64,000 bases of DNA from Schmidtea polychroa. Its lineage: Eukaryota. A model generated the notes under the pieces. It worked only from the letters and a program-made list of their open reading frames with translations. It made no database searches and was not told where the DNA came from. The stretch covers positions 76,570,001 through 76,634,000 of the forward strand of contig CM097886.1 of the NCBI GenBank assembly GCA_044892525.1, given 5' to 3'. Shown piece by piece: positions 36,480 to 57,400 of the stretch. Made by a program: the position numbers and the translations under genes. The stretch's first letter is position 1. The number at the start of each line of letters is the position of its first letter.

Positions 36480-37230
36480 AAGATCATGTGATCAACCCTA
36501 GATAATGACTGTCGCCATAATTTTATTTACTACTTGCAGGCTTTCAAACACGAATTGAAAATCTTCTTGTCTTTTATTTGCGCATACTAAAATTCCAAAT
36601 GGATGAAACACTTTATCCATGGCACTGATTCCAAATTAGTATGTAAGTGCTATCTGCATGAATGAACTTTACTGTTTATGAGATTGATAACAAGCGCTAG
36701 TGATTTTGAATTTGACCCTTTTAAAGTTTGAAGAAAGTTAAAAGTTGTCTATCATTTGGAATTTCAATTTCAGCATCTAAGAGCTTCTCTTTAAACAAAT
36801 TCTGGTTGATGAGCTTCGGTTTCTTGACTCCAAGTTGACAAAGCTTTTTGATGGCTTCTTTTGTTGCTGAATCAATCCCTCTTTTGGTTTGGTTTTCTAA
36901 GATTTCGTCATGATTGTGATTGCAGGTGGTTTCAAAGTGGACAACACCATGTTTGTCACTGTTCATAACAATCCCTGTAGCGTTTCTTGTATTCTGGTAT
37001 TATTGCTGTGGTTTTGTTGAGAGGTTGCAAAGGTCCTTTGTTGGTTTGAATTTTGTTGTTAGAAGGGTTGTGTGTTGCTTGGTTGTTGTATTGATATGGT
37101 TTAAATCTGCGAATGTTTATTCTGACTTTTTGTTATTTATTTGTAGTGTACTCATATTTTTGTTCAGATCGATTAGTTTGTCGGGGTCCTTCGTATCTTG
37201 ATTCAAAACCGCTGGTGTAAGGAATTTTTA
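36480..37230 (-). mobile_element. Second MULE transposase remnant
   Basis: CNHNH, FIHADSTY.LIW, MDKVFHPFGILVC, IMGDS motifs, with stops and frameshifts. Confidence 0.7.
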
Positions 37231-38169
37231 TTAGTACTGTATCGACGATTAATTTTGGTTGTTTACTTTTGTCGTCTTTTGTTTTTTGACAATGTAAGTG
37301 TTTTACGATTTTCCAAATAATTTATATTAACGAGTGCTGACTGTAATTATCAAAAAAATTATAATAAATAACTTAGTTGGGGTATAACATAGGTAATGTT
37401 CTAGGCCCCTAAGCGGTAGTTCATCATTCAATTGTAACGTGTCAAGCGTGACGTAGTTTAGGGGTTAGTCTGGTGCGAGTGCGCCAAAATGTATGCTTTG
37501 TCTAGGGCGCCATTTTGGCTAGGGCCGGCCTTGAATAATAATAAACATCAATATCTTTACTGATTCATAGTTAATTTTTTACTAAATTCAATGTCAATTG
37601 AAAAGAAATTAGAGGTGAAAATTGAAAGAAGCTCTTATAAGAAAAATAATAATATTAATATTAAAAAAATGGATTTAACTATAGTAAAAGCTGAAAGTTT
37701 CTCAACTAAAATGTGCAATTACATTGCTCCTAATATTATTTATATTTAGTTAAATTCTCCACATATATTACTGGTGGGTTACTGGTGGTTGAATGATTGA
37801 GTGCTGTTACCAGCGTAACCCAAAATACAACATTGTTTTTCCGCTTGGTACCCGTTGAGTGATCAACGTTGGTACTGTACCAAGGGTTGAGTACTCGCAA
37901 AAAGTGAGCGCATCAAAGCACTATAGTTGTCGAGTACTCCGTGGGTTCACGGACTACCGATAGAAGGTGTGTGTCCGATTTCTCAGGTCCCTTTATCAAA
38001 ATTGTTTTCCCAACCTTATGCACAAACTCTCATTTCCCAGGCAATCATAAACTGTACTAGTCATTATTTTATCACTACGAAACGTGCAGTATTTTAACAA
38101 GGAACATATTATTTGAAGACTACCACAATACATAAAAATACTACAAAACACCTAAAACCGAATATAAGT

Positions 38170-38673
38170 TCAAACAGGCTTATTGGTAGGACTGGCCAAT
38201 TCCGTCGCAGCTGCTAGTGACGAATTTGCTTGTCGCTCGTATTCGGCCAGTCTAGCTTTCTTCAATTTTTCCCGAATATTTCGGCCTAACCGCTTTCTTT
38301 TGGGTTTCTCTTTCGCGGCCGGGGGGTATATTGCTGCTAGTTCCACGGTCAACGGCCGGATTTGGCTTATGGCGGCTCCGTGAACTACTTGTTCATTACG
38401 TTCGGTTTTTAACGCGCGGAGCTGGAGTTTCAGTGCCCGGATCTCCATCTGATCCTGCGCAGCTTGAGTCTGCAGTTGAAGGACCTGCGCCACCTTCTTT
38501 TTCATATCCTCGGGACTAAACCAGGTGCTTTCTAGTTCCCGGCACCGTCCCTTGAGCTTGTCTACTCGTATGCGGAGCTCCTCGGACTGTTTTTGAGCTT
38601 CTGCCCTATCTCTTCGCAGATTTTCCAATAGTTTGAACACTAGATAAATTCAACGATTATATTCTTGCAGCAT
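38170..38673 (-). CDS. Coiled-coil, basic (NLS-like) accessory protein; in-frame TGA at codon 8
   Basis: aatag-t-ATG at 38673; MLQEYNR*IYLV is in frame with the 156-aa ORF; KPKRKRLGRNIREKLKKAR. Confidence 0.55.
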
Positions 38674-38849
38674 ACTATTCATTCAATTATAAAATAAAAT
38701 CAATATTATAAATAAACATAGTTTCGGATGTTAAGCACGCAATACACAAGATGATTTATTAAAAGGACTGAAATAATTATCACTAAAATCAAAGTTTAAT
38801 AAAGTCACAACTGAATGATAATTTGCAAAAACAAAATTTTGACGATGAG

Positions 38850-39215
38850 TCAGTTCAGTCGCTTGCGAGGCCTTCCCCTCTTCCGCGGGGTTGCCTCGGC
38901 CTCTTCTAGGTCCTCCACGGTTTTTCCCTCTTTTTCTGCTTGGATTTGTAGCTCGATCTTCTTGAGTCGCATCTGAGCTGCTTCTACCTCGATGGCCGCT
39001 CGGTCGCGGGCCTCTTGCAAAAAATCGTTTGTGGGCTCTGTTTTTACCCACGCCGGAGCGTCCGGCTCCGGCCCACTCCTGATTACTGGGCCAAAGTTGT
39101 CGAGGTCCAAACCCCGATTCCAATCATGGATACGGTGCCATATGTACCGTGTACGGAGTCTGGTAAGCATCTGTCGGTCGGCTTCTTCGTGGCTATCGCT
39201 GTCAGAGTAGGACAT
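38850..39215 (-). CDS. 121-aa AT-hook/coiled-coil protein
   Basis: ATG preceded by attattttgtag-aa; C-terminal RKRGRPRKR AT-hook; VKTE SUMO consensus. Confidence 0.65.
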   Translation of the reverse strand: MSYSDSDSHEEADRQMLTRLRTRYIWHRIHDWNRGLDLDNFGPVIRSGPEPDAPAWVKTEPTNDFLQEARDRAAIEVEAAQMRLKKIELQIQAEKEGKTVEDLEEAEATPRKRGRPRKRLN

Positions 39216-40164
39216 TTCTACAAAATAATAATCAAGCCCCTCTATACTGATTGAGATACGACGTCAACCACAAGAGTTTGTTGACCCTTTTTCCCTAAAA
39301 AAAAAATATTTTATTTTAAGACTAACATCTATAAGCTTAGGAGCAGTGGAATAAGATTTCCTACTTTATCAAAACAAACACAAAAAAAAAAAGGAATTCC
39401 GTCAAAATTCGTTTGTTTAAATTAATCATTTCCATTCAAAATTTTGTTTACCACTGAGTGGTAATTTTAATTACTATTTATAAATTTTAATTTATATGTT
39501 AATAAAATGTGAATTTTTTTTTAGATCGTCATTTTTAGGCCACTAAATTCGGGCACGCTGGGGCGACAGGTACTAGCAACGAACTAAGCTCTTCGTCTGC
39601 TTACCTTTCCTTCGGTTGTGCTCGTTATGAGTGGTTTGCTCTACATGCAAGTAATTTATTTGATTTTTCTACTTCCTTATTTTTTAGGCGATAACATTAG
39701 GAACCTCGATCGAGTAAGGGGAATATATTAGCTTGGAGTAGTCTTCCCATAGTTCTTCCCAGGGAATGACATTTCATGCCCAATATTTGATTTGGACCCG
39801 CAATTTGTCCCTCGCAGAAAATTGGAAATTTTTCGGGAATATTTGTATTCTGTATGTAGGTAAATCTCTGCGAATTATGGCTTATTTATTCAATTGCATG
39901 GTTCGCCGGAGTCATCCTCACCATCTCCTGGAAACTCTTGATTGTCATAGCCCCGTCTTGAATTTTTCCTTAAGGTTTCTCTGGGGGGGGGGGGTGTTGC
40001 TAAATATAGATTTTCAGTTAGGAACGTTTTTATTGGGCAAAAGAATTGACTCCAAATCTAGATATGGGGAAAAATCAATAATTGATTTTTTGCTTTCCTA
40101 GTAAGTAATACTAATTATGATCATAACCGTAAAAATGGAGATAACGAGGATAACAAATGATCGT

Positions 40165-40310
40165 AGTGGTAATAATAATAATAGTAATAGTCATAATAAC
40201 AATAATGATAATAATAATAATGAGAATAATAAGGATAGTAATAAGAACAATAATAGCAATAATAATAGTAATAATGATAATGGCAACAATAATAATAATA
40301 GTGATAATAT
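40165..40310. repeat. (AAT)n-like degenerate microsatellite
   Basis: aataataatagtaat... run. Confidence 0.85.
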
Positions 40311-40559
40311 AACTTTATATTTTACCATTCGTATTTTGGCTTTCACCATTTAGGGATTCATATTTTATGAGTTCGAAGGTTACATTTTGCACTTTACAGG
40401 TTTTCGTCTACGATTTTCAATTTTTTATCTTACAGTTTATAAATTCATACTTTAGAAGTTCTCATCATACACTTTATAATTTATAAATTGTTTATTTAAC
40501 ATTTTACCATTTTATATTTTTTACTTCCTAATTTTCTATTTTCAGATTTATAGTTTCAT

Positions 40560-41000
40560 GGTCTACCATTTAGAAATTTGGATTCTTGATTTATGATTAT
40601 ATGGTTTAAATTTTTTGTTCAATATTTTACGACGTTATGTTTTCGACTTAATGGTTATGATTTATACAATTATAGTCTACTATTTAGAAATTTAGATTTT
40701 TACTTTATGATTATATAGTTTTTGCTGACAATTTATATTCAACATTTTACGATCTTACATTTCAGACTTCATCGTTATGATTTGCCCTTTTATGATCTAC
40801 AGTTTAGATTTTTGATCCATAGTTGTATAGTTTATAACTTATAATACTATATTCGGTATTTTAGACTTTATGATTATACTTTACACTTTTAAAGTCTACA
40901 ATTTAGAAATTTAGGTTTTTAATTTATAGTTGGTAGTTTTATATTCAGTAATTTACGGTTTTAGGTCTATAATTTATCAATATAATTATCTCCAAGCTAT
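40560..41000. repeat. Degenerate ~100-120-bp tandem repeat, ~4 copies
   Basis: gtctac(c/t/a)atttagaaattt(a/g)g anchors at 40561, 40675, ~40795 and 40894. Confidence 0.65.
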
Positions 41001-42908
41001 TATAGTTATTTATAAAAGTTATAATCAATTATTTATACCTTTAGGAATATGTTACAGTGAGAATTTAGATTCGGGATTCTTTTAAATTTATAACTTTTTC
41101 CTTTACGTTGGATTCATTAAGTCGGTGATTTATTCACAGGTCTATCCAAATTTAAGCTCTACTTAGACATAGGCCGAAGAATTTTACCATTTCTATTATT
41201 CCAATTACCATGGGCTCCTATTACCAAACCTAATTCGGCATATGTCCAAGTGTACCAAAATATTATTATTGATCAACCAACTACATTAATGTGCTTGCAG
41301 AATTGTGTAAGTTTAGGTATGAGCTCTACTCAATTTAGGACCTTAGTGTGGAGTCGTTGTTTATGATTTTGAATGTGGATTTTTCATGTGTATTAAACGA
41401 AAGTCGGGAAGAATATTGCTTCCATGGCCCCACTGTGACCACTTCTACAAACCTTAGTGTTGTGTGCTGAGTCAACCATTTACGGTTGACCTTGAATAAA
41501 TACAAAGAGTCAGGCGGAGGGTTTCCTCGACCTAACTCCATGGCAGGACCATGAAGTAGTTCGACCTCCGGCTGACCCGAACAAAAAGAAATCATATAAT
41601 AAATATCACTATAATAATGATAATGCGTGTCTGCATGTCCTGTTAATAACGATTTTAATAACTTGGATGCAGGACTGAACAACGACGCAGGAATACCAGT
41701 ACGCCGTTGATCACTCATACATCGCAAAAAATTTTAAGCAAAAATAGATTTAAAATACCATCTATATAATTAAACAATTAATATACAAATAAAGATCAAT
41801 GCTTACTATCGATTTTGGAAATTTCGTCACAAAAATTTGGCATAAAAAGTGATTGATTGTGACTGAAACGTGTCAGTATATATACCTATTTTGTACACGT
41901 GTATGTATTGATGCATTAAAACAAACTCGAATTCTTTTTATTCCAGAATTTTCTATTTTACGATTTTGCTATTTTTAATGGCAATTTTTGTGCCATAATT
42001 TTTGTTTTTATTTTTATATTTTTATTTTTTAATTATTTTTCATTAATTTTACGTCCATGATGGATTTGGAACGGTTCCAGAACATTCTATTTTACTTTTA
42101 ATTTAATTTTTATTTTAACTGATGTTTTTATGAATTCTTTTTGAGATTTTTTTTTTTTTTTTTTTTTTTTATTTTTAATACTAATTTATTTATTTTCCTT
42201 AACTTTTGTTGTTCTAGATAACTTTTGTGATGGTCATCGCCATTTTTATAGAATGTTCTGGGTTTTTCTGGAATGTTTTACTGTTTTTATCGTCTTTTAA
42301 GTTATTCGAGTCTGTTTTTTGTAACTCTGTGTTTATTTGGTTATTTTTGAGTTAGATTTTTGCATCACTTCTTGCTTTTGTATAATTTTGTTTAATTTCT
42401 TTGTTTATGTTTTTGTTGCTTTCTCCTTTAGTTAATATTGTTTATTTGATGTAATTTTAATATTTAGCTAAACGTCTTGCTTTTGCATGTTGTGTACCTG
42501 CACCTTTCAGTCACAATTCAAGTTTGGGTCTAGAAGTCAGTTCTAGCCCAACATAAAACACTCGGGGGCCCATAAAATTGCGACCCGCAATTTAAATCAC
42601 AAGATGAAGAAAATTATTTTTCAGAATACTTGCACTATATTACAAGTGCCTACATGCAAATTGGGTCTACGAGCTACAGGGTCGTGACCTCAATACCCAC
42701 ATACATAAAAAGGCTACTATTATACTACATTCTACGGATGGGTTGAAAGATGAAGAAAAAGAACGACCGAGGTCGGTCCACACAAAAATAAAATTATCAT
42801 GCTCAAGAATCAATGTTATTAGTCACAATCAGTCTCAGTCTTTGAAATCATGATTGTTTGATAATGTTTTATAATGTCATGAAATGTTTATACTGTCGTG
42901 ATGTCACA

Positions 42909-43883
42909 TTAATAAAATTCGGTTGTTCGGGATCTCGTCTCGATGACGGCTCTGGTTTCAATGTTTGGGGAAGATTTGAAGTAGCTTGGTTGGTTCGTTG
43001 TTTGGACTAGCTGTTCTTCCATTGGGATACGAATACTTCTTGATTGTTCCTTTAGTTTGAGGGTTTTGTTTCTTTCTTTACTGGAATTGGGTTTGAGTGC
43101 AATCAGGCTCAGTACGGTGATGTTTATCATTAGGCTCGCCGCTAATAGGATCAATATTGTGAGGGATTCAGACTCTCTCGGTTCTATTACTTTGGGTTTG
43201 TTCATAATTTCTTTTAATTGGGTTGTATCCGCCGTTTCTGATTTTTCGGGCTTATTGAATTTGTTTTCTTCTGAGGTGACAACTTTCTTTATTGCCTCAA
43301 GGGTTTTAATCATCTTCTCGGAGTTCGTTGGGTTTTTGTTTATGGTAGTTAGGATTTCCCTTGTCATTTCTTTCAAGGTTTTCGTTACCTCATTTTTAAT
43401 GCTGGGTTCCTCTTTGATGATGGAAGTTATTTTTCCTTTCATTTCCTCCAAAGATTTTACTACTGTTTCGCAATTGCTTGAACGTCCATAGGCGGTTGCT
43501 GTTACCTGTTGTTTTATTTCCTCTAATATTATTACCATCATTCTCATTGCGGCTGGATCTGTTTGGGATTCTCTCTTTGATTTCTGACTTTGACATTGTT
43601 TGGCTAATGTTGCTATCTGGGTTCTGATAACTTTCATTTCTTGTTCTAACATTGTTTTTATTGTCTGAGCCATTTGCACTTCCGTCGAACTTTCAGTTGT
43701 TTGTGGACATTGCGAACATTGTAACTTGATTTGTTCGCATTCCTCATTGGGTTTTTCGCAGATCGATTTAAAGCTACTACATCTGCGATATGGGTATTCT
43801 TTCTGGCATCTGATCATTGATTCTTCTGCTTGCAGGATTTTTGGCATTGTCATTATAATCATCATCACGATTAGGCTTCTCAT
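42909..43883 (-). CDS. 324-aa type I membrane protein (signal peptide, Cys-rich N-terminus, coiled coil, TM)
   Basis: MRSLIVMMIIMTMPKILQA signal; 6 Cys within 31 aa; TM LTILILLAASLMINITVLSLIAL; aag|ATG. Confidence 0.75.
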   Translation of the reverse strand: MRSLIVMMIIMTMPKILQAEESMIRCQKEYPYRRCSSFKSICEKPNEECEQIKLQCSQCPQTTESSTEVQMAQTIKTMLEQEMKVIRTQIATLAKQCQSQKSKRESQTDPAAMRMMVIILEEIKQQVTATAYGRSSNCETVVKSLEEMKGKITSIIKEEPSIKNEVTKTLKEMTREILTTINKNPTNSEKMIKTLEAIKKVVTSEENKFNKPEKSETADTTQLKEIMNKPKVIEPRESESLTILILLAASLMINITVLSLIALKPNSSKERNKTLKLKEQSRSIRIPMEEQLVQTTNQPSYFKSSPNIETRAVIETRSRTTEFY

Positions 43884-43959
43884 CTTTACATATACATATA
43901 TGTTAATAATAATTACTTGGCTTTATTTACAATTTATTTACACGGTTATTTTGTCTCAT

Positions 43960-44727
43960 TTATTGGGAGCCACCGACCTCATCCCTTAATTTTACGGGAG
44001 GTTCAGGTGCTCGTCTTTTGCTCAACTCGTTCATTCTTATTACTTCGAGTTGCGTTGCTATCAACTGTCTCTTTAATTCTGGTATTTCTTGTAATTGCTT
44101 CTCTTTACTTTTCCATTTTCTCTGCTTGATGGTTATTGCCGTCTGCAATGCTTGCATGCTTCGTCGTTTTTGATTTAAGATTCTCCGGTAATTTTCTTTC
44201 AACTTCCATTGTTTTTCTGTTTCCTCTCTTTGTTCCTTGATCTCTTCCTTGAGTTTTACATTTCTCTTCTCGACTTTTTTACTTTCTCGCACTCTTGTTT
44301 TTGCATAAGCATATTGTGCTTCTAACTGCTCGATATAGACTTGGTCGATATTCACAATCTTTTTCAACTTCCTTGTTTCTGATTTCCAATAATCTTCGAT
44401 TACTGCCTGAGCTCTCAACTCTACTATCTCTTGTCTCAGGTTTTTATTTTCTGTCTCTTTTCGTTTCGATTCCTTTATTTCCCTCAAAATTTCTTGCTTG
44501 ACAGTGTTTATTAATCGTCTTGATTGAACAATATGCTGCCTCAATCTCGTAATCTCTACATTTTGATTTGCAATCTTTAATTTGAACAACTTCTTGCTGA
44601 CTCTCCATTTATTGCTATAATATTTCATCGGTTCTTGCTTGATTGGTATCATATCCTGGTTTTGTTCAGGTTGGTCGTTTGACTTTCCTTCGTTACTCGT
44701 TGATTCTCTTTCTTTTAAATAATTCAT
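43960..44727 (-). CDS. ~255-aa basic coiled-coil accessory protein
   Basis: Intact ORF; likely start MNYLK after tatttttgtag-at; heptad-rich in K/E/R/Q. Confidence 0.7.
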   Translation of the reverse strand: MNYLKERESTSNEGKSNDQPEQNQDMIPIKQEPMKYYSNKWRVSKKLFKLKIANQNVEITRLRQHIVQSRRLINTVKQEILREIKESKRKETENKNLRQEIVELRAQAVIEDYWKSETRKLKKIVNIDQVYIEQLEAQYAYAKTRVRESKKVEKRNVKLKEEIKEQREETEKQWKLKENYRRILNQKRRSMQALQTAITIKQRKWKSKEKQLQEIPELKRQLIATQLEVIRMNELSKRRAPEPPVKLRDEVGGSQ

Positions 44728-44818
44728 ATCTACAAAAATATACATATCATATTTCCTTTTGTCTTCTTTTTATTCTGAATTTTTCGGTTTTGTAATTTTT
44801 ATTTGGTTTTGGTTTTAT

Positions 44819-44819
<1 letters not shown>

Positions 44820-44862
<43 letters not shown>
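44820..44862 (-). repeat. 43-nt poly(A) tract (element sense strand)
   Basis: T43 on the plus strand, ~33 nt past the stop of the 44895 ORF. Confidence 0.9.
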
Positions 44863-44894
44863 CATTCTTATTTACAGGCAACATCTCCCTTCGA

Positions 44895-46493
44895 CTAAAT
44901 CCATGTTGCGTTATTTTGTTCGTTATTTTCATCGAAGCCTTCATCTGTGGTGACTTCGGCAGGCTGTGGCACTTGCAACGGGAACGGGTAGAGTGGCATT
45001 AATAATATTGGTGGTTGTCTCCTTAACCGATCTATTTCCTCTCGTAGTTCCGTTGAGATGTTTATTTCCTCATCCAATAAAAACGTTAATCTACCTTCGT
45101 TTTCTATCATTTCGTTTAATTCCTCTTCCAATCGTTGGGTTCTTTCGAGCGTTTTTAGTTTCTCAATTTCCGCTCTCAAATTTGCTTCATTTTCTTCGAA
45201 GCATCGTTTTATTATCTCGGTTTCCTGTTTGGTTTGTTGAATTGTCTTGTCGCACTCCTCTCTATATTTCGCATTAAGCTCAATCTGGTGCTTCCAATTC
45301 ACATCCCTTTGGGTGTACATACCTTTATATCCGTTCATCTCTTGATTGGCTTCTTCCACTTCGGTTTGTAATTGTCGGATCTGTCGATCTTGGTCTGTCA
45401 ATTGTTGTTCCCATCTCTTTTCCTGGAATTCATACCTTCTTATTTCTCGAGTCTGTTTCTTTATGATTCTCTGTCTACCGTCGCTGATCCGCGTCTTGAT
45501 TCTATATTCTCTACTCAATCGGCTGATCTCATCTTTTTGGTTTTCTATCGTTTCCCATATTTTAAATTCGTCTCTTTCCATCAGTTTTATTGGTAACTGT
45601 CTTAACTCCTCTTTGGTCTCTTTCCAATTCTTTTTCCATTTTCGGGCTTGATGCTTGAGACACTTTTCGGTTTCCTCAGTTTTCTGCTGTCGTTTTCTCC
45701 ACTCTACTTCCTCTTCTTCTCGCTGTGCAGCTCTTGTTTCGTAAAATTCTTGGTCTGCTTTTCGTAATCGCAGTTGTTCCTTGCTACTGATTTTCCAATA
45801 GAGCACTTGAGTTTGACTTCCTAGGTATTTATACTTCCATTTCTGGGCTTGTATCTTTATTTGTGTGTTAATTCGCTCTAATACGTTATCTCTAACAATT
45901 GGTTCTCTATGCGGTGTTCTCCTCCCTTGCCCTCTGACTTCGTTTAGGGTCTTTTTGCATCTTTCCCATTTTTCTTTCATCATTGCGCATTTGCCCTTTA
46001 CTTCTTCTAGTTCGGCCTTGTAATTCCGTATTTGATGTTCGTGACTATCATTCTGCCTTGTCTGGAGGGTTTCGTACTTTAGCTTCCATTGTTGCGCTTG
46101 TAGTTTTATTCGTTCCGTTTTACGCTGTTCCTCCTCGTATTGCTCCTTTGCTTCCCTAATTTGTGCCTTCTGCATTATTATCTCTCCGCATAACCCAACT
46201 ATCTCCATAATCCGCTGAGTTCGTAAATTCGAGAGCTCTTCCTCCAATTCTTGGTATGTTGAGGTATTTCTCACATCCTCGGTTAATTCCTCTACCTGTT
46301 TCATCCACTCCTCCTTTGTTGCTAGTGCTTCCGCCTTCTCCGCTTCTAATTCTTGTTGCTTTTTCTCATACATGGTTTTGTACATTTCTATTTCTCTCTT
46401 TACTCTTTCTGCTTCGTATGTTTGTATGATGGATTTGTACTGTTCGAGTTGTTGCATCTCGGTTTCCACATAGGTTTGTGATTCTTTATTCAT
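44895..46493 (-). CDS. 532-aa long coiled-coil accessory protein
   Basis: Intact ORF, E/K/Q/R-rich, repeated QAxxWKxK motif; attatttag-aca-ATG. Confidence 0.8.
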   Translation of the reverse strand: MNKESQTYVETEMQQLEQYKSIIQTYEAERVKREIEMYKTMYEKKQQELEAEKAEALATKEEWMKQVEELTEDVRNTSTYQELEEELSNLRTQRIMEIVGLCGEIIMQKAQIREAKEQYEEEQRKTERIKLQAQQWKLKYETLQTRQNDSHEHQIRNYKAELEEVKGKCAMMKEKWERCKKTLNEVRGQGRRTPHREPIVRDNVLERINTQIKIQAQKWKYKYLGSQTQVLYWKISSKEQLRLRKADQEFYETRAAQREEEEVEWRKRQQKTEETEKCLKHQARKWKKNWKETKEELRQLPIKLMERDEFKIWETIENQKDEISRLSREYRIKTRISDGRQRIIKKQTREIRRYEFQEKRWEQQLTDQDRQIRQLQTEVEEANQEMNGYKGMYTQRDVNWKHQIELNAKYREECDKTIQQTKQETEIIKRCFEENEANLRAEIEKLKTLERTQRLEEELNEMIENEGRLTFLLDEEINISTELREEIDRLRRQPPILLMPLYPFPLQVPQPAEVTTDEGFDENNEQNNATWI

Positions 46494-46575
46494 TGTCTAA
46501 ATAATTACACTATTACTACCACTATTATTTCATACATTTATTATCTACACTTTATACACGGAATTTTAATTTTTG

Positions 46576-47754
46576 TTATTGATCGGCGTAGCGGAATCCT
46601 TTGATTCGCTGCGCAATCCTCTGTCTGCACATCGGACATTCCTTTACTTTTCTACTACATGTGGCACATGCGATCAAATGTCCGCATGGCATATGAATAA
46701 CTTCTACACTCCTCTCCCAACACATAGTACATTTGATATCTCGTAAGATAGCTGTTTTGACCATTGATTCTTCTTTTATTTTTGTTTCAGGTTTTTCTCT
46801 ATACTGGGTTATCGCTCTGATCATATCGTACGTTGTTGTTGGTATATGTACATTTTTCTGTAGTTTCTCTCTAATCATGTTCTTTGCCCTTGTCGTGCCT
46901 ATTCCGGCTGCTTTCAACGCTCTGCACATGTTGGGTTTGTCTACCACTTCGTCAACCTCTTCCTCTGTTACTAGTACTTCCGGATATTCGGTTTCTTGTT
47001 CGTTGTGATATAGGCACCATGCTTGATGTCTAATTTCTGGTATGCCTTCTTCCGGTAATCTCTGTTGGCTTTCGCATCTTTCACACTTTAGTATTTGATT
47101 TTCTGTTAGGTAGAACCCTCTTATTGCTAATTCAGGTCCTCTCGTATCATCTCCGAACGTTTTCATTCTATTATCTGCTATTTGCGTGAGGAATTCCCCT
47201 TCACAAGTTGGAACATACTCATCAACGATTCTGGTTATCGCGATGCTCATTTTCCCTCCTTTTTCGTCTTCAGTTTTCAATTTCTCCAAGGCTTCGTATT
47301 TGATTTCCGGTTTGTTGTGTACATCAAATCCCAGTACGAATAGACAAGTTGGGAATCGTCTACGATGTTCCTCCTTTGGGTGTTCTCCTTTTTTCCATTC
47401 TGCTAATTTCCCTTTACAGAAACGACATGTTACTTGATCGGGTATCTCTGGTTTTCCGGAGAAGAAAAATCCGTCGCGTGCTAGCGCTCGGCTCTGTTCC
47501 TTGGTGAAAATGGTCTGATGTTCAAATGACAGATATCTCTGGTTCTCACATCTGAATTGTTCATTATCTCCCAGTTTCAAATTTTCGTGTACCCAATTAT
47601 AATCGTTTCCCATTCTCCGATAATATGCGTAACTACTTGGTTTTGTTTTGCTGACTTCCGCATCCTTCACTCTTTCTCTAGGTGACATATTGTCCTCTTC
47701 CTCTCTCATTGTGATCGTTTTCTTTCGGATATTCGGTCTCTCTTGATTAATCAT
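46576..47754 (-). CDS. Inhibitor of apoptosis protein (BIR + degenerate BIR + UBA-like + RING), intronless
   Basis: LARDGFFF...VTCRFC...W..GEHP.EEHRRRFPTCLFV; C-terminal RING CTMC...PCGHLIACATC....CPMCR. Confidence 0.92.
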   Translation of the reverse strand: MINQERPNIRKKTITMREEEDNMSPRERVKDAEVSKTKPSSYAYYRRMGNDYNWVHENLKLGDNEQFRCENQRYLSFEHQTIFTKEQSRALARDGFFFSGKPEIPDQVTCRFCKGKLAEWKKGEHPKEEHRRRFPTCLFVLGFDVHNKPEIKYEALEKLKTEDEKGGKMSIAITRIVDEYVPTCEGEFLTQIADNRMKTFGDDTRGPELAIRGFYLTENQILKCERCESQQRLPEEGIPEIRHQAWCLYHNEQETEYPEVLVTEEEVDEVVDKPNMCRALKAAGIGTTRAKNMIREKLQKNVHIPTTTYDMIRAITQYREKPETKIKEESMVKTAILRDIKCTMCWERSVEVIHMPCGHLIACATCSRKVKECPMCRQRIAQRIKGFRYADQ

Positions 47755-47894
47755 CTATAATAAATTTCATCATTTCTTTTTACATTTTCTTTTTCTAATT
47801 TTTATGGTTTTGGCAAGTTACTTTACTGTATACAATAACTTTATATTTACTTTACGTCGTTTTTACAAAATATTTACAGTTCCCTCCTATCCGT

Positions 47895-49319
47895 CTATCG
47901 TATTTCTATTGTTGGTCCTTCCTCATCTAGTTCGATTAGGAAGAATATAGTGTCCTTTTCTATGTAGGACCCTTCATTAAATTGGTATAGCTGCATAAAC
48001 TCTGCTACTCCTACCGCAGGATTAACCTCTGTAATCGGTTTATTCCCTGCTGGACTGGATGCTCGAAAACACATTATATGTGTCTTTTTTGCTCCTAAGA
48101 GAGATATTTTTAATCTATGTCGGAATGGCCATGCTATTAGGTCGTCAAAATCTCCTTTACAAATTTGCATATATATGGACATGCACCGATCTTTAAACTT
48201 TCCTTCACCATTTGGAAACCATCTCAATTTCATCTTGTATCCATGTTTCTTGGCGTAGAATGGTTTGCTCACTATCGTTGTCTGGATTCCTTGCTTTGCT
48301 TGCTCCATTATTTCCGTTATTCCTTGGATTTTCCACATGTATGGTAGTATTGGTAGTTCCTCTGTTGTCAGTTCCTTTGTAGTCCATTTGGTTTGTAATT
48401 TAGTTACTTCGACTAATTTGTCGTCTAATTTCAACATCCTTTGTGTTACGGCTTCTCTCGTATTTTCGAAGCTTTCCTGTGAGCTCAGCATTTCTTTTAT
48501 CATGATTTTATGTGATTTGAGTTCGTCTTTGACGTCTTCAATTGCTCTTGCTGTTAACTCTATTGCTCTCATCATCTTTTGCATGTGCTCGAATGTATTC
48601 TCCTCCACATGCTTCTTCATTTCTTCTGCTGGTAATTGTGCTCTACAGTCGAATGTCACCATTGGGCATTTTATTGCTTTTCTCGTGCATATCTCCCAAT
48701 GTTCATTTAATCTGACGTTGTTAATTTCTCCACACTCGTTTGGGCATTTCCCTGTATATTCGTCGCAAATCCGTCTTTCTACTGCGTTTCGATGTTCCAT
48801 TTCGATTTCTCTCCAATTAGCAGTTTCTCCGCAAAATTCGCATTTTTCCGTTCGCGCTTTGCATTCCCCTTTATGTTTGGTTTTCTCTTTTCGTAAAAAC
48901 TTTACCGTGCATGCTTCGCATTCCGATTCTAGATATTCGCATACGTCTGTATGGGCTCTTAACTCCTTTACTCGGCCTGTCCATTCGCATGACCTTTGGG
49001 TGCATCTTATTTTCACTTCTCTGATTTCTCGGTTCATTGCTCTATCCGGTATCGTACCAGTGGGGACCAACTTAAATGCTTCTCCACATCCTGGACAAGT
49101 TTCTCGTTTTAGTCTGGCTAATCTTATATCACACCCTCGGCACAATCTACACCCGCATCGAGTTTGACTTGCTCCAATTAATAATCTTCTACATGCTGTA
49201 TCGGCACATAATAATCTCTCTTCGAACTCGTCCGGCTCGGCTTGGTATTTTCTCATCAACTCATAGTTAATCTTTTGTTCCTCTGCTTCTCTCCGGTTTT
49301 CCTCTGCTTTGTTTTGCAT
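47895..49319 (-). CDS. TRAF-like protein (RING, TRAF zinc fingers, coiled coil, MATH), intronless
   Basis: CGCRLCRGC..TCPGC, DRAMNREI, CEWTG...H..VC, MATH YMWKI..SKPFY..GYKMKLRWFPNG..SIY..ICKGDFDDLIAWPF. Confidence 0.93.
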   Translation of the reverse strand: MQNKAEENRREAEEQKINYELMRKYQAEPDEFEERLLCADTACRRLLIGASQTRCGCRLCRGCDIRLARLKRETCPGCGEAFKLVPTGTIPDRAMNREIREVKIRCTQRSCEWTGRVKELRAHTDVCEYLESECEACTVKFLRKEKTKHKGECKARTEKCEFCGETANWREIEMEHRNAVERRICDEYTGKCPNECGEINNVRLNEHWEICTRKAIKCPMVTFDCRAQLPAEEMKKHVEENTFEHMQKMMRAIELTARAIEDVKDELKSHKIMIKEMLSSQESFENTREAVTQRMLKLDDKLVEVTKLQTKWTTKELTTEELPILPYMWKIQGITEIMEQAKQGIQTTIVSKPFYAKKHGYKMKLRWFPNGEGKFKDRCMSIYMQICKGDFDDLIAWPFRHRLKISLLGAKKTHIMCFRASSPAGNKPITEVNPAVGVAEFMQLYQFNEGSYIEKDTIFFLIELDEEGPTIEIR

Positions 49320-49408
49320 TCTACAATGATGATTTTTAATCTTGGGATTTCTACTTGATTATAACTCTATTTATTTACAGGATTATTTACATTTCACTCC
49401 TTTTTCTC

Positions 49409-49864
49409 CTACACATCTACCGTCGAGTCCGGTTCCCCTGTTCCTGGTAACCCGGTCATCCACTCGACTAAACTGGTAATATCATCATGTTGTCGATTTT
49501 CATGCAACCTTCTAATTTCTTCCGCTTGCCATCTGATTTGGCTTATTAACTGATTGTTATTATACTCTAGTTGCGCGATTATTTGGTGTTGTTCCTCTAT
49601 TTTTGTAATATATATTGCATTTCTATTAATACTCTCTATCAACGCCGTTTGGTTTCGTACCCAGTGCTCTTGAGTCTGATTTGTCAATTGGGTCATTAAT
49701 TCACACTGTACCCTCCACATGGATCCTGTTGGCTGACTCGGCTGGTTTGGCACGTTCATTTCCATCATGTCTACTGGATGTACATTCATAAGCGGCTGTT
49801 CTCTTACTTCAACAACATGTGGTATCCTATTTGGGTGTTCTTGCTCTTCGTTTCTCTGGTTCAT
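49409..49864 (-). CDS. 151-aa small coiled-coil accessory protein
   Basis: Intact ORF, Q/N/E-rich heptads; tattataaatag-ga-ATG. Confidence 0.6.
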   Translation of the reverse strand: MNQRNEEQEHPNRIPHVVEVREQPLMNVHPVDMMEMNVPNQPSQPTGSMWRVQCELMTQLTNQTQEHWVRNQTALIESINRNAIYITKIEEQHQIIAQLEYNNNQLISQIRWQAEEIRRLHENRQHDDITSLVEWMTGLPGTGEPDSTVDV

Positions 49865-50012
49865 TCCTATTTATAATACATGGTCATCATACTTGTTTTT
49901 GATTTTTCTACATATTGTTTTAATTTACTACTTTTATTTTGTACATACTACTACTATTATCACTACTTTTATTATTTCATTTATACATTATTTACAACAA
50001 CTCCTCCTCTCG

Positions 50013-51407
50013 TTATACCAGTGTCGCCATGGGGCCGGAATGCAGCGTGCGCATTCCCCCATATCTTTCGTCCGTTATTCGGTATATATCGACTTCGTGT
50101 GTCCATTCGTTCGGTGTGGGTATTCTTGGTAGTTCCGACATCCACAATCCGCTGGATCCGGGATCCTCTACCACCTCGTATTCTTCTAGATTCAGATTCT
50201 CTGTTGGAATACCGTATTCAAATTTTTCCACTTTGGGCCATTTTCTTTGGTTTCTCGGTTTTTGTTTACATCTTTTGGTGGTTCTTATCCACTGAATCAT
50301 TGCTAACGCTATTATCGTGCTTACTATCGCGCTAGTTATCCATATCATCTTTGTGATGATCGTTGTTCCATTATTTGTTTTTTCTGTCGTTAATATTGTA
50401 CTACCTGTGGTATTTGTTTCTGGTGCTTTGATTTTCTTGAATGCTTGATGTAATCGTTCCTTCTCTTTTTCTGTTAGGTGACTGTGATTTTCCCGTTTCT
50501 CTCCCCCTTCTTGATCTCGGGGTATCCACGGTATGTTTATTAATTGGGGTTTTTGTCGAGTTATTGGTTGACATACGCTGGTTCCTCTTCCTTTCTTAAG
50601 GATACATACTTGGTATCGTTCTTTCCGTTTCCCTGTCTCCATTTTAACGTCTGTACCTTTGTCTATCGGTGTTGTTGTACAGTCGATTATTCCCGTCTTA
50701 TCCATTACACATATCCTTATGATTGGTTCTCCTTCCTGGTTTTTGACTGTAATTACCTCTTCACCTTTCTTGTTGAGGTTAATAGTTATCTGCACTTCCC
50801 GTCTTTCGTCTTTAATTACTTCGTTAATCCATGTTGTTGTTGTTATTAATTCGGTTTGATTTTGCTCTGTTGTTGTTTTTGTACTAACTGATTTGTTTGG
50901 CTTCTTGGTTGTTATCCCCCTCAATGGATCTTGTTTCATTGCCATACTCTTTGGCTTGTCTTTTCTTGGTGCAGTTCTTGTTCCTTTACATACTACTATC
51001 CCTTGTGTTCCTGCGCATACCACAGTAGGGGTATTTGGTTTGACCTCTCCCCAGAAGAATTTGTGGTCTTGTGTCATATCAGTTATTATGCATATGTCTC
51101 TGTCTTCTCTGATGCATACATGTGTAATTGATCGACTCCCTTTATCTTCTATTTCGATACCTTCTTCCAAAATGTTGAGTTGAAAATGTACTCCGGTTTC
51201 GTTGGCTCTTTCTAGCTCCATTTCCTCTGTTGATATGTCTCTACAGATGTCATAATCTCCACATAGCCTGGGATCTCTTTTTTGGCTGCTAAAAATCTTT
51301 CCTTTTGTTATCGATCTGAAATCACAACTTACTCCTGTTCCTTCCATTAGTTGCACACATATTCCGACGGCATTTCCGTCGTAATCCTGACTTTTATCAT
51401 AAATACT
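50013..51407 (-). CDS. Type I membrane glycoprotein-like ORF overlapping the polyprotein end (-1 frame)
   Basis: Frame open from 51407; Cys-paired ectodomain, Thr-rich stalk, TM MIWITSAIVSTIIALAMIQWI, tail with Tyr motifs; no own signal peptide or upstream ATG. Confidence 0.75.
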   Translation of the reverse strand, partial: SIYDKSQDYDGNAVGICVQLMEGTGVSCDFRSITKGKIFSSQKRDPRLCGDYDICRDISTEEMELERANETGVHFQLNILEEGIEIEDKGSRSITHVCIREDRDICIITDMTQDHKFFWGEVKPNTPTVVCAGTQGIVVCKGTRTAPRKDKPKSMAMKQDPLRGITTKKPNKSVSTKTTTEQNQTELITTTTWINEVIKDERREVQITINLNKKGEEVITVKNQEGEPIIRICVMDKTGIIDCTTTPIDKGTDVKMETGKRKERYQVCILKKGRGTSVCQPITRQKPQLINIPWIPRDQEGGEKRENHSHLTEKEKERLHQAFKKIKAPETNTTGSTILTTEKTNNGTTIITKMIWITSAIVSTIIALAMIQWIRTTKRCKQKPRNQRKWPKVEKFEYGIPTENLNLEEYEVVEDPGSSGLWMSELPRIPTPNEWTHEVDIYRITDERYGGMRTLHSGPMATLV

Positions 51408-54400
51408 TCACCTTCTTGGGAAGCTTCTCTTACGATTCCCATATTTTTTGTTTCTGTTAAACAGATGGATGTTAATATTATAAATATTCTTTGTAGTAGG
51501 ATTGGCTGGATTTGATTTCGACACACTATGCTATGTAGTGGGGACTTTCGTTTTTTGTTCTCCGTTTTGTCGAATCCTTGATCTTCACCTCGACATTGGT
51601 CTTCTTCGTCTTCTTCCAATTCCTCATCATCACTCGTTGTTTCTCCGCCTTCCGGATTCTGTTCTCTGTCGTTTTCCTCTGGGTTGTTATCGTTATCCCC
51701 CATCCTTTCGTCGTCGTCGTCGTCGTCATTCCTCTCACCCGGGGTTTTCCTGAAAATGTCGTCCTCGACATTTGCTGCTTTGATCATCTCCTCGTATTTT
51801 TTAATTATCTCTTTTTTGTCGTTGTGGATACTTTCTCGTTCTTCTTTGGTTCCTTGATATTTCCGTTGTTTCCGGTGCCATTCCCACACTAGTATTTCTA
51901 GTTGCTTTTTCATCGCATGTGTTTTTGTGCATTCCCACCAATTACCTGTCAATTCTGTTCTATTTCTCTGTAATATTGCTTTAATGGTTTTTGGCATTGG
52001 TGGTCTTGAGTATATGGCGCTTCTTAGTACGATATTTTCGTTGTTTTGGAATTGATTTATATCAATTACTTCCGCTCTTAATTCGTTTTGTTTCCATTTG
52101 ATTAATATTGCTGCGGTTCTGTCTAAGTTTCCTCTGATGGCTTCCAGAATTGGTTCAATGCTCTGTCCCAACACCTCGGCTTCTTCGGTTGTTGCATTTC
52201 CTGTGATAAAGTTCACTATACTAGGTCTTTTTGACCTGACGGCATAACGTAATACGGTTCGTTGTTTGTTATCTTTTTCTTTCAGCGTGGATCCCGTTCT
52301 TAATAATTCTCTGAGTACATCTCTTGACGCGCCTATTGCTATGGCTTTCATCAGTGGAGTTTTTCCTTTACTGTTTTTGACGTTTGTTGATTGTTTGCAG
52401 TTTTCCATTATTCGTATAATCTCTAAAGCTCGTTTTTCTTGTCCTGCTTTCACTGCATGATGGATTGGCCAGTTATTACTCAAATCACTTGTTAGGAACA
52501 TGATTGGTAATCTCCGGATTAGTTCATATATTTGAGTCGGTATTTGTAATCCTTCGGCATATCTTCGTCCTTTCGCATATCTTTCTGCTACTAACATTAG
52601 TTTGCCCAATACTTGGTATTTATTGGTTATATCGGCCCATTCTGGTACAATTTCTCGTGCTATTTTTATTGTCATATTCCATGTTGCTTGGCTCCTTGCC
52701 ATTGCGTCAGCTTCGCTTTCTGCTTCAGTTCCTTTATGGGCGCTGCTGCTTGTTTCTCCTCTCAACATGAATATTCGTCTTGTCTGTGATCTAGTTAATC
52801 TACCGCTTACTTCTGGTTCCGTTGTGGCATTTGTTTGTGATCTCGTGATTATCCTTCTTGTTTCTGGGTCTTTAGTGGCAGTTTTCGCTACTGCTTTGCA
52901 TCGACATGTATTCACATAAATGGGTCTAATTAGTGGATTGTTAACCAACTTCACTCTAGCGTTGTTCTCGTTTACATAGATGATTTCATATGGCCCTCTG
53001 CCATTACGTTGTAATTTCTTTGCTGTTCCTGGGATTAATTCGGGTGTTTCTATAATAACCCAATCTCCGATTTTAAATTGATGGTTTTGCACGTTCTTCT
53101 TTTTATCATGTAATTCCTTATAACTCTCTTGGTTGAATCGGATGTTCATCCCTGCGGTTTTCCATATTTCTTGCATTCTCTCCTTGAACTTTGTCACATA
53201 ATCATCTATCTCCATATATTGTGAGATTGGCGGTTGGTATTCGAGATCCATCGGCATGTTGCATTCCCTTCCATACATGAGTTTAAACGGACTCATTTTC
53301 GTTGCTGAGTGTATTGACATTCGATAAGCCATTAGACACAACTTAATATATTCATCCCAGTCCTTTTGATGTTTACTCACGTAATTGGACATCATGTCTA
53401 TTAGTATGCCGTTAAATCTTTCTGTCTGACCATTCGTTTGCGGGTGGTATGGTGAGGTTCTCAATTTGGCAATTCTAAAATAATTTGTCACTTCATTTAT
53501 TATCTCGCTCATGAAATTAGTTCCTTGGTCAGTTAAGATTTGTTTTGGTGTTCCATATCTGCAGCAGATCTCTTCCACTAATATCCTTGCAACCGTTCGT
53601 GCTTTCTGGTCTGGCATCGCAAATGCTTCAGGGAACTTAGTCAGATAATCAGTTATTACCAATATATACACATTTCCACTGTTAGTCTCTGGTAGTGGTC
53701 CAACTACATCCATTGCAATCATTGTCATCGGTTCTGGCGGTATCGGCATTGGTTTCAATGGTGGCTTTAGTTTACTGCCCGTTGTTTTTCTGGTTGCGCA
53801 TATCAGGCAGTTCTTTATCCATTCTTTCACGTCATCGCTCATATTTGGCCAGTAATATTTCTGTTTGAGCCTTGCTTCTGTTTTCTTGGCTGACATATGT
53901 CCGCCCAATTTACCATCGTGGTATTGAATCATAATTTCTTTCCGTCTACTTTCTGGTAGACACATCAATCGTTTGTCGCCATCCATTACCAATAGCCATC
54001 CTTTCTCGATCGTATATCTGTGACGATTTTTCTCCATGTGTTCTTTTAGTCGATCATCGTTGTTGAATATTTTCATATCGTTTTTTTCCAGGAACTCAAT
54101 TATTAGTTTTAATTCATTGTCTTCCTTTTGTTCGTTCTTTAGATTGGTAAAATCGATATCTTCCGCGATTATCAGGCATATTCGTCTGACGTCATGATCC
54201 ATGAGTTCTTCAAATACAAATCTCGACATGCAGTCTGCATTTGCGTTTGCTTTTCCTGACTTGAATTTGATGTATGGGGAATATTCTTGTAACTGCATTG
54301 CCCATCTCATCAATCGACTAGATGCCTCTTTATGTTGGCCCAACCAAACTAGAGGTTGATGGTCCGTAGTAATAATTATCTCGTGTCCCCATAATAAATA

Positions 54401-57400
54401 TTTGAAATGTTTTATCGCCTGAATTATTGCTAAGGCTTCTCTTTCTGTGACCGAGTAATTCTTCTCGTGTTTTTTGAACGTCTTGCTATAATATCCGATG
54501 ACTCTTTCTCTTTTCTCCTCATCCCATTGTCCTAGCACAGCTCCTGATGCGTATCCACTTGCATCAGTTGCTAATAAAAAAGGCTTTTTGAAATCTGGGT
54601 GGATTAAGATAGGCGAGGCTATTAGTTTATCTCTGAGCGATTCGAAAGCTATTTGCTGTTCCCTTTCCCACAGAAATGGAGTATCTTTTTTTGTTAGTTC
54701 TTGAATTGGTTTTGCGATAGTTGCATAATTTTTGATAAACTTGCGGTAGTATCCGCATAATCCCAGAAATTCTTGTACCTGAGTCACGGTTTTTGGTATC
54801 GGACAATTCTTTATTTTCTCAACGTTTCTCGGATCTGGTTCTTTTCCTTTTGCCGACACAATGTGTCCTAAAAATGTGACTCTCTCCTTTGCCCAGTCGC
54901 ATTTTGACGGTTTCAATTTCAGCTTCCATTGTTTCAGTCTTATGAATACGTTTCTGATGTCGATTAAGTGTTGCTCGAAAGTACCTGAATAAATTAACAG
55001 ATCATCGATATACACCATACATTGTTTGATCCCGTGTGTCACAAAGTTCATACATCTCTGAAACGAAGCAGGTGCGTTTGTTAATCCAAATGGCATCTTT
55101 TTAAACTGATATAAATCTTTTCCGATGGTAAAGGCTGTCTTTTCTCTATCTTCCTCTTTAACTTTAATTTGCCAGTATCCACTCTTTAGATCTAAAGATG
55201 TAAAGTATGCTGCTCCATGTAACATCTGTAACATTTCGTTAATATCTGGCAGTGGGTATGTATCCCTTTTTGTTACTGCATTCAACCTCCGATAATCGAT
55301 ACAAAATCTCTGTGTGCCATCTTTCTTTTTGACCATTACTACTGGAAATTGCCAGGGTGAACAGCTAGGTTCGATCACTCCGGCATCTAACATCTTTTGT
55401 ACCTCCTCCTCTGCTACCGTTTTCTGTGCTTCGGCTAATCGATATGGTCTCAAAGTTATGGGTGTCTCATCCGTTAATGGTATAATGTGTTGCGTTACAT
55501 CGCTGGTACCCAAATCCAAATCTGAAGCCGCAAAAATATCTTTAAACTCAATCAGTAGCTGTCTGAGTTGTTCCTTTTCGTCTTCATTTAGGAGTTCGCT
55601 ATCGATGGTCCATAATTCTTTTTCGTCTGCTCCCTCGCTTTTGATCTCCGGCAGCTCAATGTTCATCATTGGTGTGAGTTTTCCAAGTCTCTCGTTTTCG
55701 TAGATTACTTTATCTTCCTCATCAAAATTGGTGATGTTGATGGGTATCTCGTTATCCTCATTTATACTGACAATTTCTCTTGCCAATGGCAGCTCCCTTC
55801 TCTTCTCGAATTTTTGACTTGGTTCAAATATCATATCTCCTTTGGCTTCGTTATCGACCTTGACATAACATATTGTCTGGGTACGTGCTGGTATTATCAT
55901 TTTTTCGGAGCATCTCACTTCTGTTCTCATTGTGCATATCTGTCCAGTTTTATCTTTTAATTTCATGGAACTTAAATCAATCACAATTTCTTTCAATAAT
56001 TCCGGCATTACATCTGTTCCAATTATACATGATACGCTTAGCTGTCTAATGACTGCGAGGTACGTTGTAACTTTAACCCCTTTGTATTCGATCGTTGACC
56101 ATACTCTTCCTACTACCGCTATGGATTGTTTGCTGCATGTTATTACATCCATGGTTGTCTCCTCAATGCATGGCCATAGTCTTCCTGGTAGCATATTCAT
56201 ATTTATTGCTGAGATATTTGCTCCGGTATCAATCATTGCATCCATCTCTATTCCGTTTACTTCGACCGTGATAGTTAACGATGGTCCTGCTGGTGTCTGC
56301 AATACCGCAATCGTTCGTGTCTCCACCTCTTGCCCCACATTTTTAACTGGCTTGATCATTGTTGGGTCCATTGCTGCCCAATTTGGTTCATACGCCGTTG
56401 GGTAAATATTTGGTACGGGTAATCTCCCGGTTCCCATTCTTATCCGTTCTCTCATTGTCCCTGGTCGTCGCATTGGCCCATTGGTTGGTGCCTGTAAATA
56501 TGGTGATCCCCATGGTTTCCTTTTTTCGTTTTCCCAAGTGTCTGTATTTTTGTTTATCAACATTACTCCTCCTTGATTATTATCGTCATCGTCGAAATCA
56601 TCATTGTCATCACTATCATCGTCTCGTCTGAGATTCATCCACTTTTTCCACTTCCCGGTTCTTTTCGCTTTCTCTTGAGTTCTTTCCGCTTCCAATCTCA
56701 TTATCACTTTGAACTTACGTCCGACTTCTTCATCTGTCCCTTTCATTTGCGTTAATATTTTCAACAATCTTTTTATTCGATGAATATCCTTTGAGTGTCC
56801 ATGCAACACCATTGTTTTCGCTAGGAACGGTAAGAATCCAATTGCAAGTTTCCAATTTACTTTTCTCTCGCGCTTATAGATGTCAAAACATGCTAGCATC
56901 TGAGTTAGTATCACTCTAACTATTTGTATTATCAGAATTATTCCGAGTATCCCTGCCATCATTTGGCCAAATACCAAAAATCTACCCCACATAGCCTTCA
57001 TCATGTTTGCTGTTGCTTGTTGGTAGTGACTTGGTGATAATAATAGCTCGTAGTTCGGGCTCTCCCCATAATTATTTCCTCCAGAAATAGTCACTATATT
57101 TGATAAGATTGCTTGTCTTTGCGCTGGGAATAACAGGTGGGCTCTTGCTGATTCGAGATCTTTTGGTGTATATAATCCACTCTGGGATACGTCTATCGGC
57201 TTGAACTCTAGTTCTGTTGTTAGTTCCGTCAATCCAAATTTCTTGGGCGTTACTACGATTGTTTTACTTGGGAATTGAACCCATTGTCCATCTTCTTTTT
57301 CATACATTGGTCCATATGCATTACTACAATTAAACAGATTTGGTTGAAACCCTACCGGGTTCATTACCCTAGTGACTGCTTGCACAAACCTGGGTTTACC

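Follow-up and report, generated by a model that had tools for sequence, protein, structure and literature searches.

The window analysed here is a 64,000-nucleotide (nt) stretch of the Schmidtea polychroa genome (GenBank assembly GCA_044892525.1, contig CM097886.1, positions 76,570,001 to 76,634,000), which carries on its minus strand a retroelement of about 35 kb with long terminal repeats (LTRs), a very young element of the Burro type of Ty3/gypsy whose 5′ LTR lies beyond the window. In the 3′ half of this element a short motif, TGTA(A/G)ATA, stands just behind one stop codon after another and is probably a binding site for the host's Pumilio protein. The open reading frames (ORFs; lengths in amino acids, aa) and the 3′ LTR are given below in the element's own 5′ to 3′ order, with A1 to A7 as our labels; PR stands for protease, RT for reverse transcriptase and IN for integrase.

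51347..64000, minus strand: polyprotein (Gag-MATH-fusion glycoprotein-PR-RT-RNaseH-IN-ankyrin by Pfam), running on past the window edge
50013..51347, minus strand: A1, a 444-aa ORF, the C-terminal membrane-protein segment of the polyprotein, split off in this copy only
49409..49864, minus strand: A2, 151 aa, without a Pfam family
47895..49319, minus strand: A3, TRAF-like, 474 aa, with zf-TRAF and MATH
46576..47754, minus strand: A4, IAP-like, 392 aa, with BIR and RING
44895..46493, minus strand: A5, 532 aa, without a Pfam family; by eye charged and coiled-coil-like
43960..44727, minus strand: A6, about 255 aa (a 255-aa ORF in sister copies), without a Pfam family
42909..43883, minus strand: A7, the last accessory ORF, 324 aa, with no motif after it in the window's family
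37772..42553, minus strand: 3′ LTR, 4.78 kb, 99.92% identical to the 5′ LTR, with TG...CA ends and a 4-bp target duplication

Pfam places a zinc knuckle, MATH, a Monjiviricetes-type fusion glycoprotein, protease, RT, RNase H, integrase and ankyrin along the polyprotein, in that order. In all 9 near-identical sister copies whose locus covers the junction, A1 and Pol share one reading frame, so the stop at 50013 ends the polyprotein and not an accessory gene; in the window copy the frame is broken near 51350 (about positions 1060-1400 of our locus L019), before A1, leaving 4,340 codons versus the 4,791 open in most copies. The original prediction placed the motif after six consecutive accessory stops; it does follow all six, of which one is the polyprotein stop and five are accessory. 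All 105 scored matches to A4 in the element's own genome are 99-100% identical, which makes the family both young and abundant.

The sites themselves are listed next. Copy counts refer to a subfamily set of 19 copies, whose accessory proteins are mostly 87-100% identical, and comparisons to a diverged second family, family B; the window's own family is family A.

49989..49996, minus strand: UGUAAAUA, 16 nt past the polyprotein/A1 stop, at 16 nt in 18/18 recovered subfamily copies; in family B, TGTATATA at 13 nt
49384..49391, minus strand: UGUAAAUA, first of a tandem pair, 17 nt past the A2 stop; the family B pair lies at 18-19 and 28-29 nt
49372..49379, minus strand: UGUAAAUA, second of the A2 pair, mutated in 1 of 17 near-identical copies
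47871..47878, minus strand: UGUAAAUA, 16 nt past the A3 (TRAF) stop, in 17/19 subfamily copies; predicted unpaired probability 0.11
46542..46549, minus strand: UGUAGAUA, 26 nt past the A4 (IAP) stop, in 18/19 subfamily copies; predicted unpaired probability 0.16
44869..44876, minus strand: UGUAAAUA, followed by a genomic A-run, 18 nt past the A5 stop, in 16/17 subfamily copies, one of them as TGTATATA
44820..44862, minus strand: A43 homopolymer in the A5/A6 spacer, its length varying between copies
43935..43942, minus strand: UGUAAAUA, first of a pair, 17 nt past the A6 stop, in 18/18 subfamily copies; family B homologue in 17/18, at 15-22 nt
43924..43931, minus strand: UGUAAAUA, second of the A6 pair, a match to the pattern

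The observation of TGTA(A/G)ATA is real. All eight coordinates of the original prediction match the motif on the minus strand, and its estimate of eight copies in about 700 nt against a chance expectation well below one held up: the six spacers, 684 nt in total, carry 1, 2, 1, 1, 1 and 2 copies and no antisense copy, against 0.48 expected, and none of 20,000 dinucleotide shuffles reaches eight. As a post-hoc control, a gapped 8-mer of any kind common to all six spacers arose in 118 of 5,000 shuffles. Position is constrained too, with the first copy 16, 17, 16, 26, 18 and 17 nt past the stop in the six spacers (P ~1e-5 under random placement). Across the window the looser pattern TGTANATA is not enriched (23 matches versus 16.3 expected; 9 of 100 shuffles reach 23), and the signal is therefore specific to the spacers. 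Along the element, sense and antisense matches to this looser pattern number 0/0 in each LTR, 2/0 in the leader, 1/2 in the 14 kb polyprotein, 10/2 in the accessory block and 0/0 after A7. A ninth match, at 44727-44734, overlaps the A6 acceptor and start codon; the motif is absent from both LTRs and from the stretch behind the last ORF (42909), and two further copies (TGTAAATA) stand in the 5′ leader beyond the window, about 400 nt upstream of a RING-like ORF. That ORF, of 160 aa, lies between the 5′ LTR and gag (L019:3751-4233) and has a homologue in family B.

We followed conservation through two families of one genome, the comparison being confined to these because an RT-IN search gave only distant relatives (the closest in the library at most 54% identical) and a composite-pattern search for further families gave 0 matches. 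The 17 near-identical copies are too young to inform on conservation. Among the 19 subfamily copies, in contrast, the motif's seven fixed positions are identical at 723 of 728 (99.3%) versus 8155 of 8820 (92.5%) in the rest of the spacer, a test that overstates significance inasmuch as the copies are related and not independent; of the 110 subfamily spacer copies recovered, 106 have the motif no more than 45 nt past the stop. Family B is 57-60% identical to the window's family in Pol and 25-34% in the accessory proteins, and in it the motif recurs 13-26 nt past homologous stops, at 7 sites versus 0.64 expected in one spacer set and 13 versus 0.71 in the other, the tandem pair after the A2 homologue included. 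Over the 15 spacers of both families, from which the B6/B7 spacer of B1 was left out as spanning two loci, the first site lies 13-26 nt past the stop in 13.

A further 20 family B copies were fetched through the last family B ORF and cover the last two spacers only; two of these 20 loci, which are without the B6 gene, and L079, a different element, were excluded from the counts. A site lies 15-22 nt past the B6 stop in 17 of the 18 copies that have B6, while the protein of the next ORF drops to 47-89% identity, and among 12 distinct sequences identity after B6 is 83/84 within the motif versus 318/456 outside it. With motifs masked, three of five homologous spacers of families A and B still align above shuffles (P = 0.033, <0.004 and 0.007), a sign that their spacers have a common ancestry; the two families do not count as independent origins. 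Three compact single-ORF relatives were read and none has a site in the 260 nt past its stop, which ties the motif to multi-ORF arrays. Taken as a comparison of sequences, this pattern indicates that the motif is under selection.

Which molecule reads the motif is suggested by its degeneracy. The 15 spacers hold 28 sense sites versus one antisense; position 5 over the 28 is A in 16, T in 10 and C and G in one each, and one homologous site toggles between A and C there (12 versus 6 copies), while single changes at positions 1-4, 6 and 8 occur at background frequency. The host genome has a PUF gene whose eight triplets, read from four exon frames, are SRQ, NYQ, CRQ, NHQ, CRQ, NYQ, SNE and NYQ, which match the human and fly Pumilio code. 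The Pumilio response element (PRE) is described as UGUANAUA, with a flexible position 5 and greatest effect in 3′ untranslated regions (UTRs), in the available part of PMC5758885, and the motif fits it with position 5 alone degenerate, apart from a mild effect at position 7. The Pumilio element named in the original prediction is supported by the sequence, through a free position 5, sense-only occurrence, retention across divergent families and a host PUF protein predicted to carry the canonical code; the motifs are probably Pumilio sites. One Pumilio exon (repeats 3-4) is present twice more, at G000:C4:88412964 and C4:88553481, 13 Mb from the main gene.

The same letters invite a reading at the level of DNA, as a forkhead site (GTAAATA, also raised in the original prediction) or a TATA-like core promoter that would serve an internal promoter of the downstream ORF, and the placement of one copy upstream of every ORF from A2 to A7 and of two in the leader upstream of the RING ORF would suit it. 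A forkhead site is RYAAAYA, with a fixed AAA core and T or C at position 7, in either orientation. The 15 spacers, however, contain 0 TGTAAACA variants, and position 5 is T in many sites and C or G in single ones, replacing a core A in 12 of 28 sites and breaking both the forkhead AAA core and a TATA box. Together with the strand bias (28 versus 1) and a distance fixed to the upstream stop and not to the downstream start, this makes a DNA element most improbable, and the forkhead part of the original prediction is not supported.

Coordinated 3′-end formation, which the original prediction also offered, deserves a fuller hearing. CFIm reads UGUA, and the motif could be part of a 3′-end signal of CFIm-type UGUA plus A-rich hexamer, which would give each ORF a short 3′ UTR and poly(A) tail and leave the next ORF to receive its cap by splicing in trans or in cis, an arrangement known from the operons of nematodes and flatworms and from the adenovirus late unit, possibly with Pumilio binding on top. 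The fixed stop distance, the absence of the motif after the last ORF (which can use the LTR), a CFIm25 gene in the host genome, the enrichment of TGTA in the spacers (21 versus 10) and a genomic A-run directly past one site all agree with this, as does spacer length, 76-167 nt here and a median of 99 bp in Schistosoma mansoni operons in the part of PMC12582326 available. The hexamer, however, does not follow: AATAAA is not enriched in three spacer sets (8 versus 6.8, 5 versus 4.8 and 5 versus 4.9; P = 0.37, 0.53 and 0.56), and ten family B sites are TGTATATA. The original prediction had several motifs overlapping AATAAA, but the overlap does not exceed chance (8 versus 6.45, P = 0.31) and the spacer at 47755-47894 is without AATAAA. 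A UGUA preference of CFIm also leaves the invariant AUA unexplained.

Downstream composition points the same way. The 50 nt past the motifs are 44-92% A and 2-36% U, versus 37-51% U at eight host TRAF/MATH 3′ ends; sequence is A-rich past all six first motifs and U-rich at seven of those eight host ends, none of which has the motif in the 120 nt read. Planarian poly(A) sites are reported as U-rich and lacking an upstream UGUA in the accessible portion of PMC5068929, and six internal poly(A) sites would be expected to compete with full-length genomic RNA. Operon-like polyadenylation with trans-splicing had been our first choice and was demoted by the planarian poly(A) report, the lack of AATAAA enrichment and the A-rich downstream sequence; 3′-end formation emerges weakly supported, and as the function of the motif we consider it unlikely.

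Each accessory ORF is also preceded by an acceptor-like AG, 0-3 nt before its ATG and kept in all subfamily copies recovered of the 19 loci.

49867..49868, minus strand: acceptor-like AG, 2 nt ahead of the A2 ATG; 18/18 copies have an AG no more than 3 nt from the ATG
49321..49322, minus strand: acceptor-like AG 1 nt before the A3 ATG, 19/19 copies
47755..47756, minus strand: acceptor-like AG directly before the A4 ATG, 19/19 copies
46497..46498, minus strand: acceptor-like AG 3 nt before the A5 ATG, 19/19 copies
44730..44731, minus strand: acceptor-like AG, 2 nt ahead of the ATG at 44727 that is the likely start of A6, 16/16 copies
43884..43885, minus strand: acceptor-like AG (AAG) directly before the A7 ATG, 18/18 copies

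Similar AGs stand elsewhere, 2 nt before the ATG of an ORF within the LTR (38850-39215, minus strand), at the ATG of the leader RING ORF, and shortly before the ATG of host single-exon TRAF-like genes (L101, L103, L104 and L108).

The motif might also have a role in splicing. It could be a 5′ donor (T|GTAAATA), which would turn the ORFs into cassette exons or the spacers into introns, or a protein site that modulates a nearby acceptor. We compared it with a host donor profile built from 94 dynein introns (of 98 calls, kept at a margin of at least 15), in which 5 of 94 donors read GTAAAT and 49 of 94 introns are no longer than 60 nt; some family B copies, moreover, lie 3-7 nt before an acceptor. 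But all eight sites score below the host-donor median, seven of them at or below its 10th percentile, and T|GTA.ATA is matched by a single one of the 94 donors, T being found at -1 in 9% and A at +5 in 26%. Four of the six spacers offer better-scoring GTs and a fifth an equal-scoring one. The splice-donor reading was rejected after this profile, and a role in splicing in the wider sense is highly improbable; forkhead, poly(A)-hexamer and splice-donor readings all fit worse than Pumilio.

Transcript sequence was searched in five contig-only runs (X1-X5), about 5% diverged from the window and with the RNA type guessed, none of the listed runs that contain the element being recorded as RNA. Among the joints listed (6 of 6, and 15 of 22) none falls at a motif or acceptor and none is a spliced-leader junction, and among the loose ends listed (23 of 87, and 24 of 286) none resembles a leader or a tail. 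Several contigs read straight through the A2/A3 and A4/A5 spacers, a result equally expected from genomic RNA or DNA; between the readings these contigs weigh neither way. About 360 nt into the LTR, a genomic A30 run at 42147-42200 follows overlapping AATAAA hexamers. Near 42200 the depth of one run is very high and A-tails occur, which may reflect a real poly(A) site or internal priming.

The account that we slightly favour, drawn from these arrangements of motif, stop and acceptor, is that host Pumilio binds past each stop on spliced subgenomic messenger RNAs (mRNAs) and thereby doses the TRAF and IAP cargo. Splicing of a leader onto each acceptor, in cis or by spliced-leader trans-splicing, would make every accessory ORF the first ORF of its own mRNA, and the motif would then lie at the start of that ORF's 3′ UTR, just past the terminating ribosome. 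A terminating ribosome has a footprint of about 15 nt, a figure that comes from microRNA work, and the gap of at least 13 nt between stop and motif would fit exclusion from it. Once bound, Pumilio would hold back translation and, by way of CCR4-NOT, hasten deadenylation; the amount of TRAF, IAP and other cargo would thereby be kept down where Pumilio is plentiful, as in stem cells. Should all these RNAs have a common 3′ end, the number of sites would form a gradient, with eight on genomic RNA, then 7, 5, 4, 3 and 2, and 0 for A7. Repression is the action documented for Pumilio in the available parts of PMC5758885 and PMC11182014.

A number of points weigh against this proposal. In flies PREs tend toward the 3′ end of the UTR, according to the portion of PMC11182014 available, a tendency that would suit separate short UTRs better than nested ones. 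Repressive sites kept by a selfish element may be a puzzle. Position-7 variants are mildly enriched (7 versus 1.7 in family A, 3 versus 0.7 in B1), which hints at a looser UGUA-plus-A-rich signal. Two of the eight sites are predicted to be mostly paired, the other six having unpaired probabilities of 0.49-0.77; neither of the leader copies stands behind a long ORF, and the stop of the RING ORF there is not followed by an exact site. The first 75 nt of the B5/B6 spacer of family B are free of sites, those that the spacer does contain turn over and are no better conserved than their surroundings (175/210 versus 1964/2325), and several family B copies lie 3-7 nt before the acceptor instead of past the stop.

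In place of a stop-proximal Pumilio-type site, the B5/B6 spacer of L056 and L117-L136 holds two short GGGAC-containing segments resembling inverted repeats, an A-run and a GC-rich segment.

A protein bound behind the stop, Pumilio or another reader of the same code, might instead shield RNAs with very long 3′ UTRs from nonsense-mediated decay or block re-initiation on the next ORF, a role that would be analogous to that of the Rous sarcoma virus stability element. That would explain why the site keeps to 13-26 nt past the stop, the polyprotein stop included, in 13 of 15 spacers, why past the last ORF it is absent (family A, 0) or inconstant (family B, 8 of 18), and why the compact single-ORF relatives go without it. 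Against it stand the leader RING ORF and the family B B5 stop, neither of which has an exact site nearby, and Pumilio's record as a repressor in what PMC5758885 and PMC11182014 make available; we judge the shield improbable, and return to Pumilio as a repressor that doses the cargo.

The rest of the locus was surveyed for context. An Rfam search of 36000-52000 returned nothing credible, a homologue search with A3 found none, and none of the seven proteins is in the cluster collection. A primer-binding site can be seen by eye just 3′ of the 5′ LTR (L019:4933-4950), which looks complementary to the 3′ end of tRNA-Pro. The LTR contains two minus-strand ORFs, at 38850-39215 and 38170-38505, whose 3′ spacers are U-rich and without the motif. 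Short segments around the 3′ LTR boundary (42546-42711) have very high depth, with matches in many contigs that are otherwise unrelated, which suggests that numerous elements have a motif in common. A separate DNA transposon at 30902-33881 has a 14-nt tandem array at both ends, inverted, flanking ORFs (31708-33495) that resemble a MULE-type transposase.

Burro, or GYPSM1, elements are giant planarian Ty3/gypsy LTR elements, described in the available part of PMC6431247 as exceeding 30 kb and combining a single polyprotein (Gag, MATH, an in-frame fusion glycoprotein, PR, RT, RNase H, IN and ankyrin) with BIR-containing and other accessory ORFs and high copy number. The element here shares the length above 30 kb, TG...CA LTRs with a target duplication, the polyprotein order and the BIR/RING and TRAF-type cargo, and its class is assigned by this layout. 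Spacer motifs, acceptors and accessory-ORF expression are not covered in that part of PMC6431247.

The putative sites are the same 8-mer as the human PUM1/2 and Drosophila Pum element, free at position 5, sense, past the stop, in AU-rich context and sometimes paired within 100 nt, as set out in the accessible text of PMC5758885 and PMC11182014. Unlike host PREs, which the available part of PMC11182014 places toward the UTR 3′ end, they come one or two per cistron in a mobile multi-ORF element, 13-26 nt past the stop. Same-strand ORFs about 100 nt apart, each with an acceptor just before its ATG, recall the flatworm and nematode operons of the part of PMC12582326 available; in contrast to these, there is no poly(A) hexamer enrichment or U-rich element, and a retroelement must also make full-length RNA.

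The literature searched contains no description of Pumilio-type sites in Burro spacers and does not address how cargo genes of 30-kb multi-ORF retroelements are expressed and dosed; the 2026 paper on Burro1 and B-IAP (PMC13047482), which could cover transcript structure, lay outside that search. Both the element family and the motif are already known, and what is new is the per-cistron, stop-anchored arrangement, kept across families whose proteins are about 30% identical. Complex retroviruses likewise place an acceptor before each accessory ORF and make leader-spliced mRNAs, and the Rous sarcoma virus RNA stability element is also a cis element just past a stop that faces a very long 3′ UTR; both differ from the present case, a Ty3/gypsy element with a short PUF-type 8-mer at every junction as opposed to one long pyrimidine-rich element.

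With a conserved Pumilio site at almost all of its gene junctions, the transposon would have its cargo linked to the RNA control of host stem cells. The Burro IAP is reported to protect planarian stem cells, as cited in the available part of PMC13465017, and DjPum is essential for planarian stem cells according to a reference title in PMC3868585, itself available in part. Tentatively, and with more doubt than belief, one may picture a whole Burro-type expression programme wired to this stem-cell regulator, with an acceptor before and a Pumilio site behind every cistron, nested mRNAs graded from eight sites to none, Pumilio fixing the proportions in which capsid, TRAF and anti-apoptotic IAP are made, and expressed copies by the hundred acting as a NORAD-like sink for Pumilio in neoblasts. 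If Pumilio does dose the cargo as we propose, the host cell could set the output of the element's anti-cell-death proteins.

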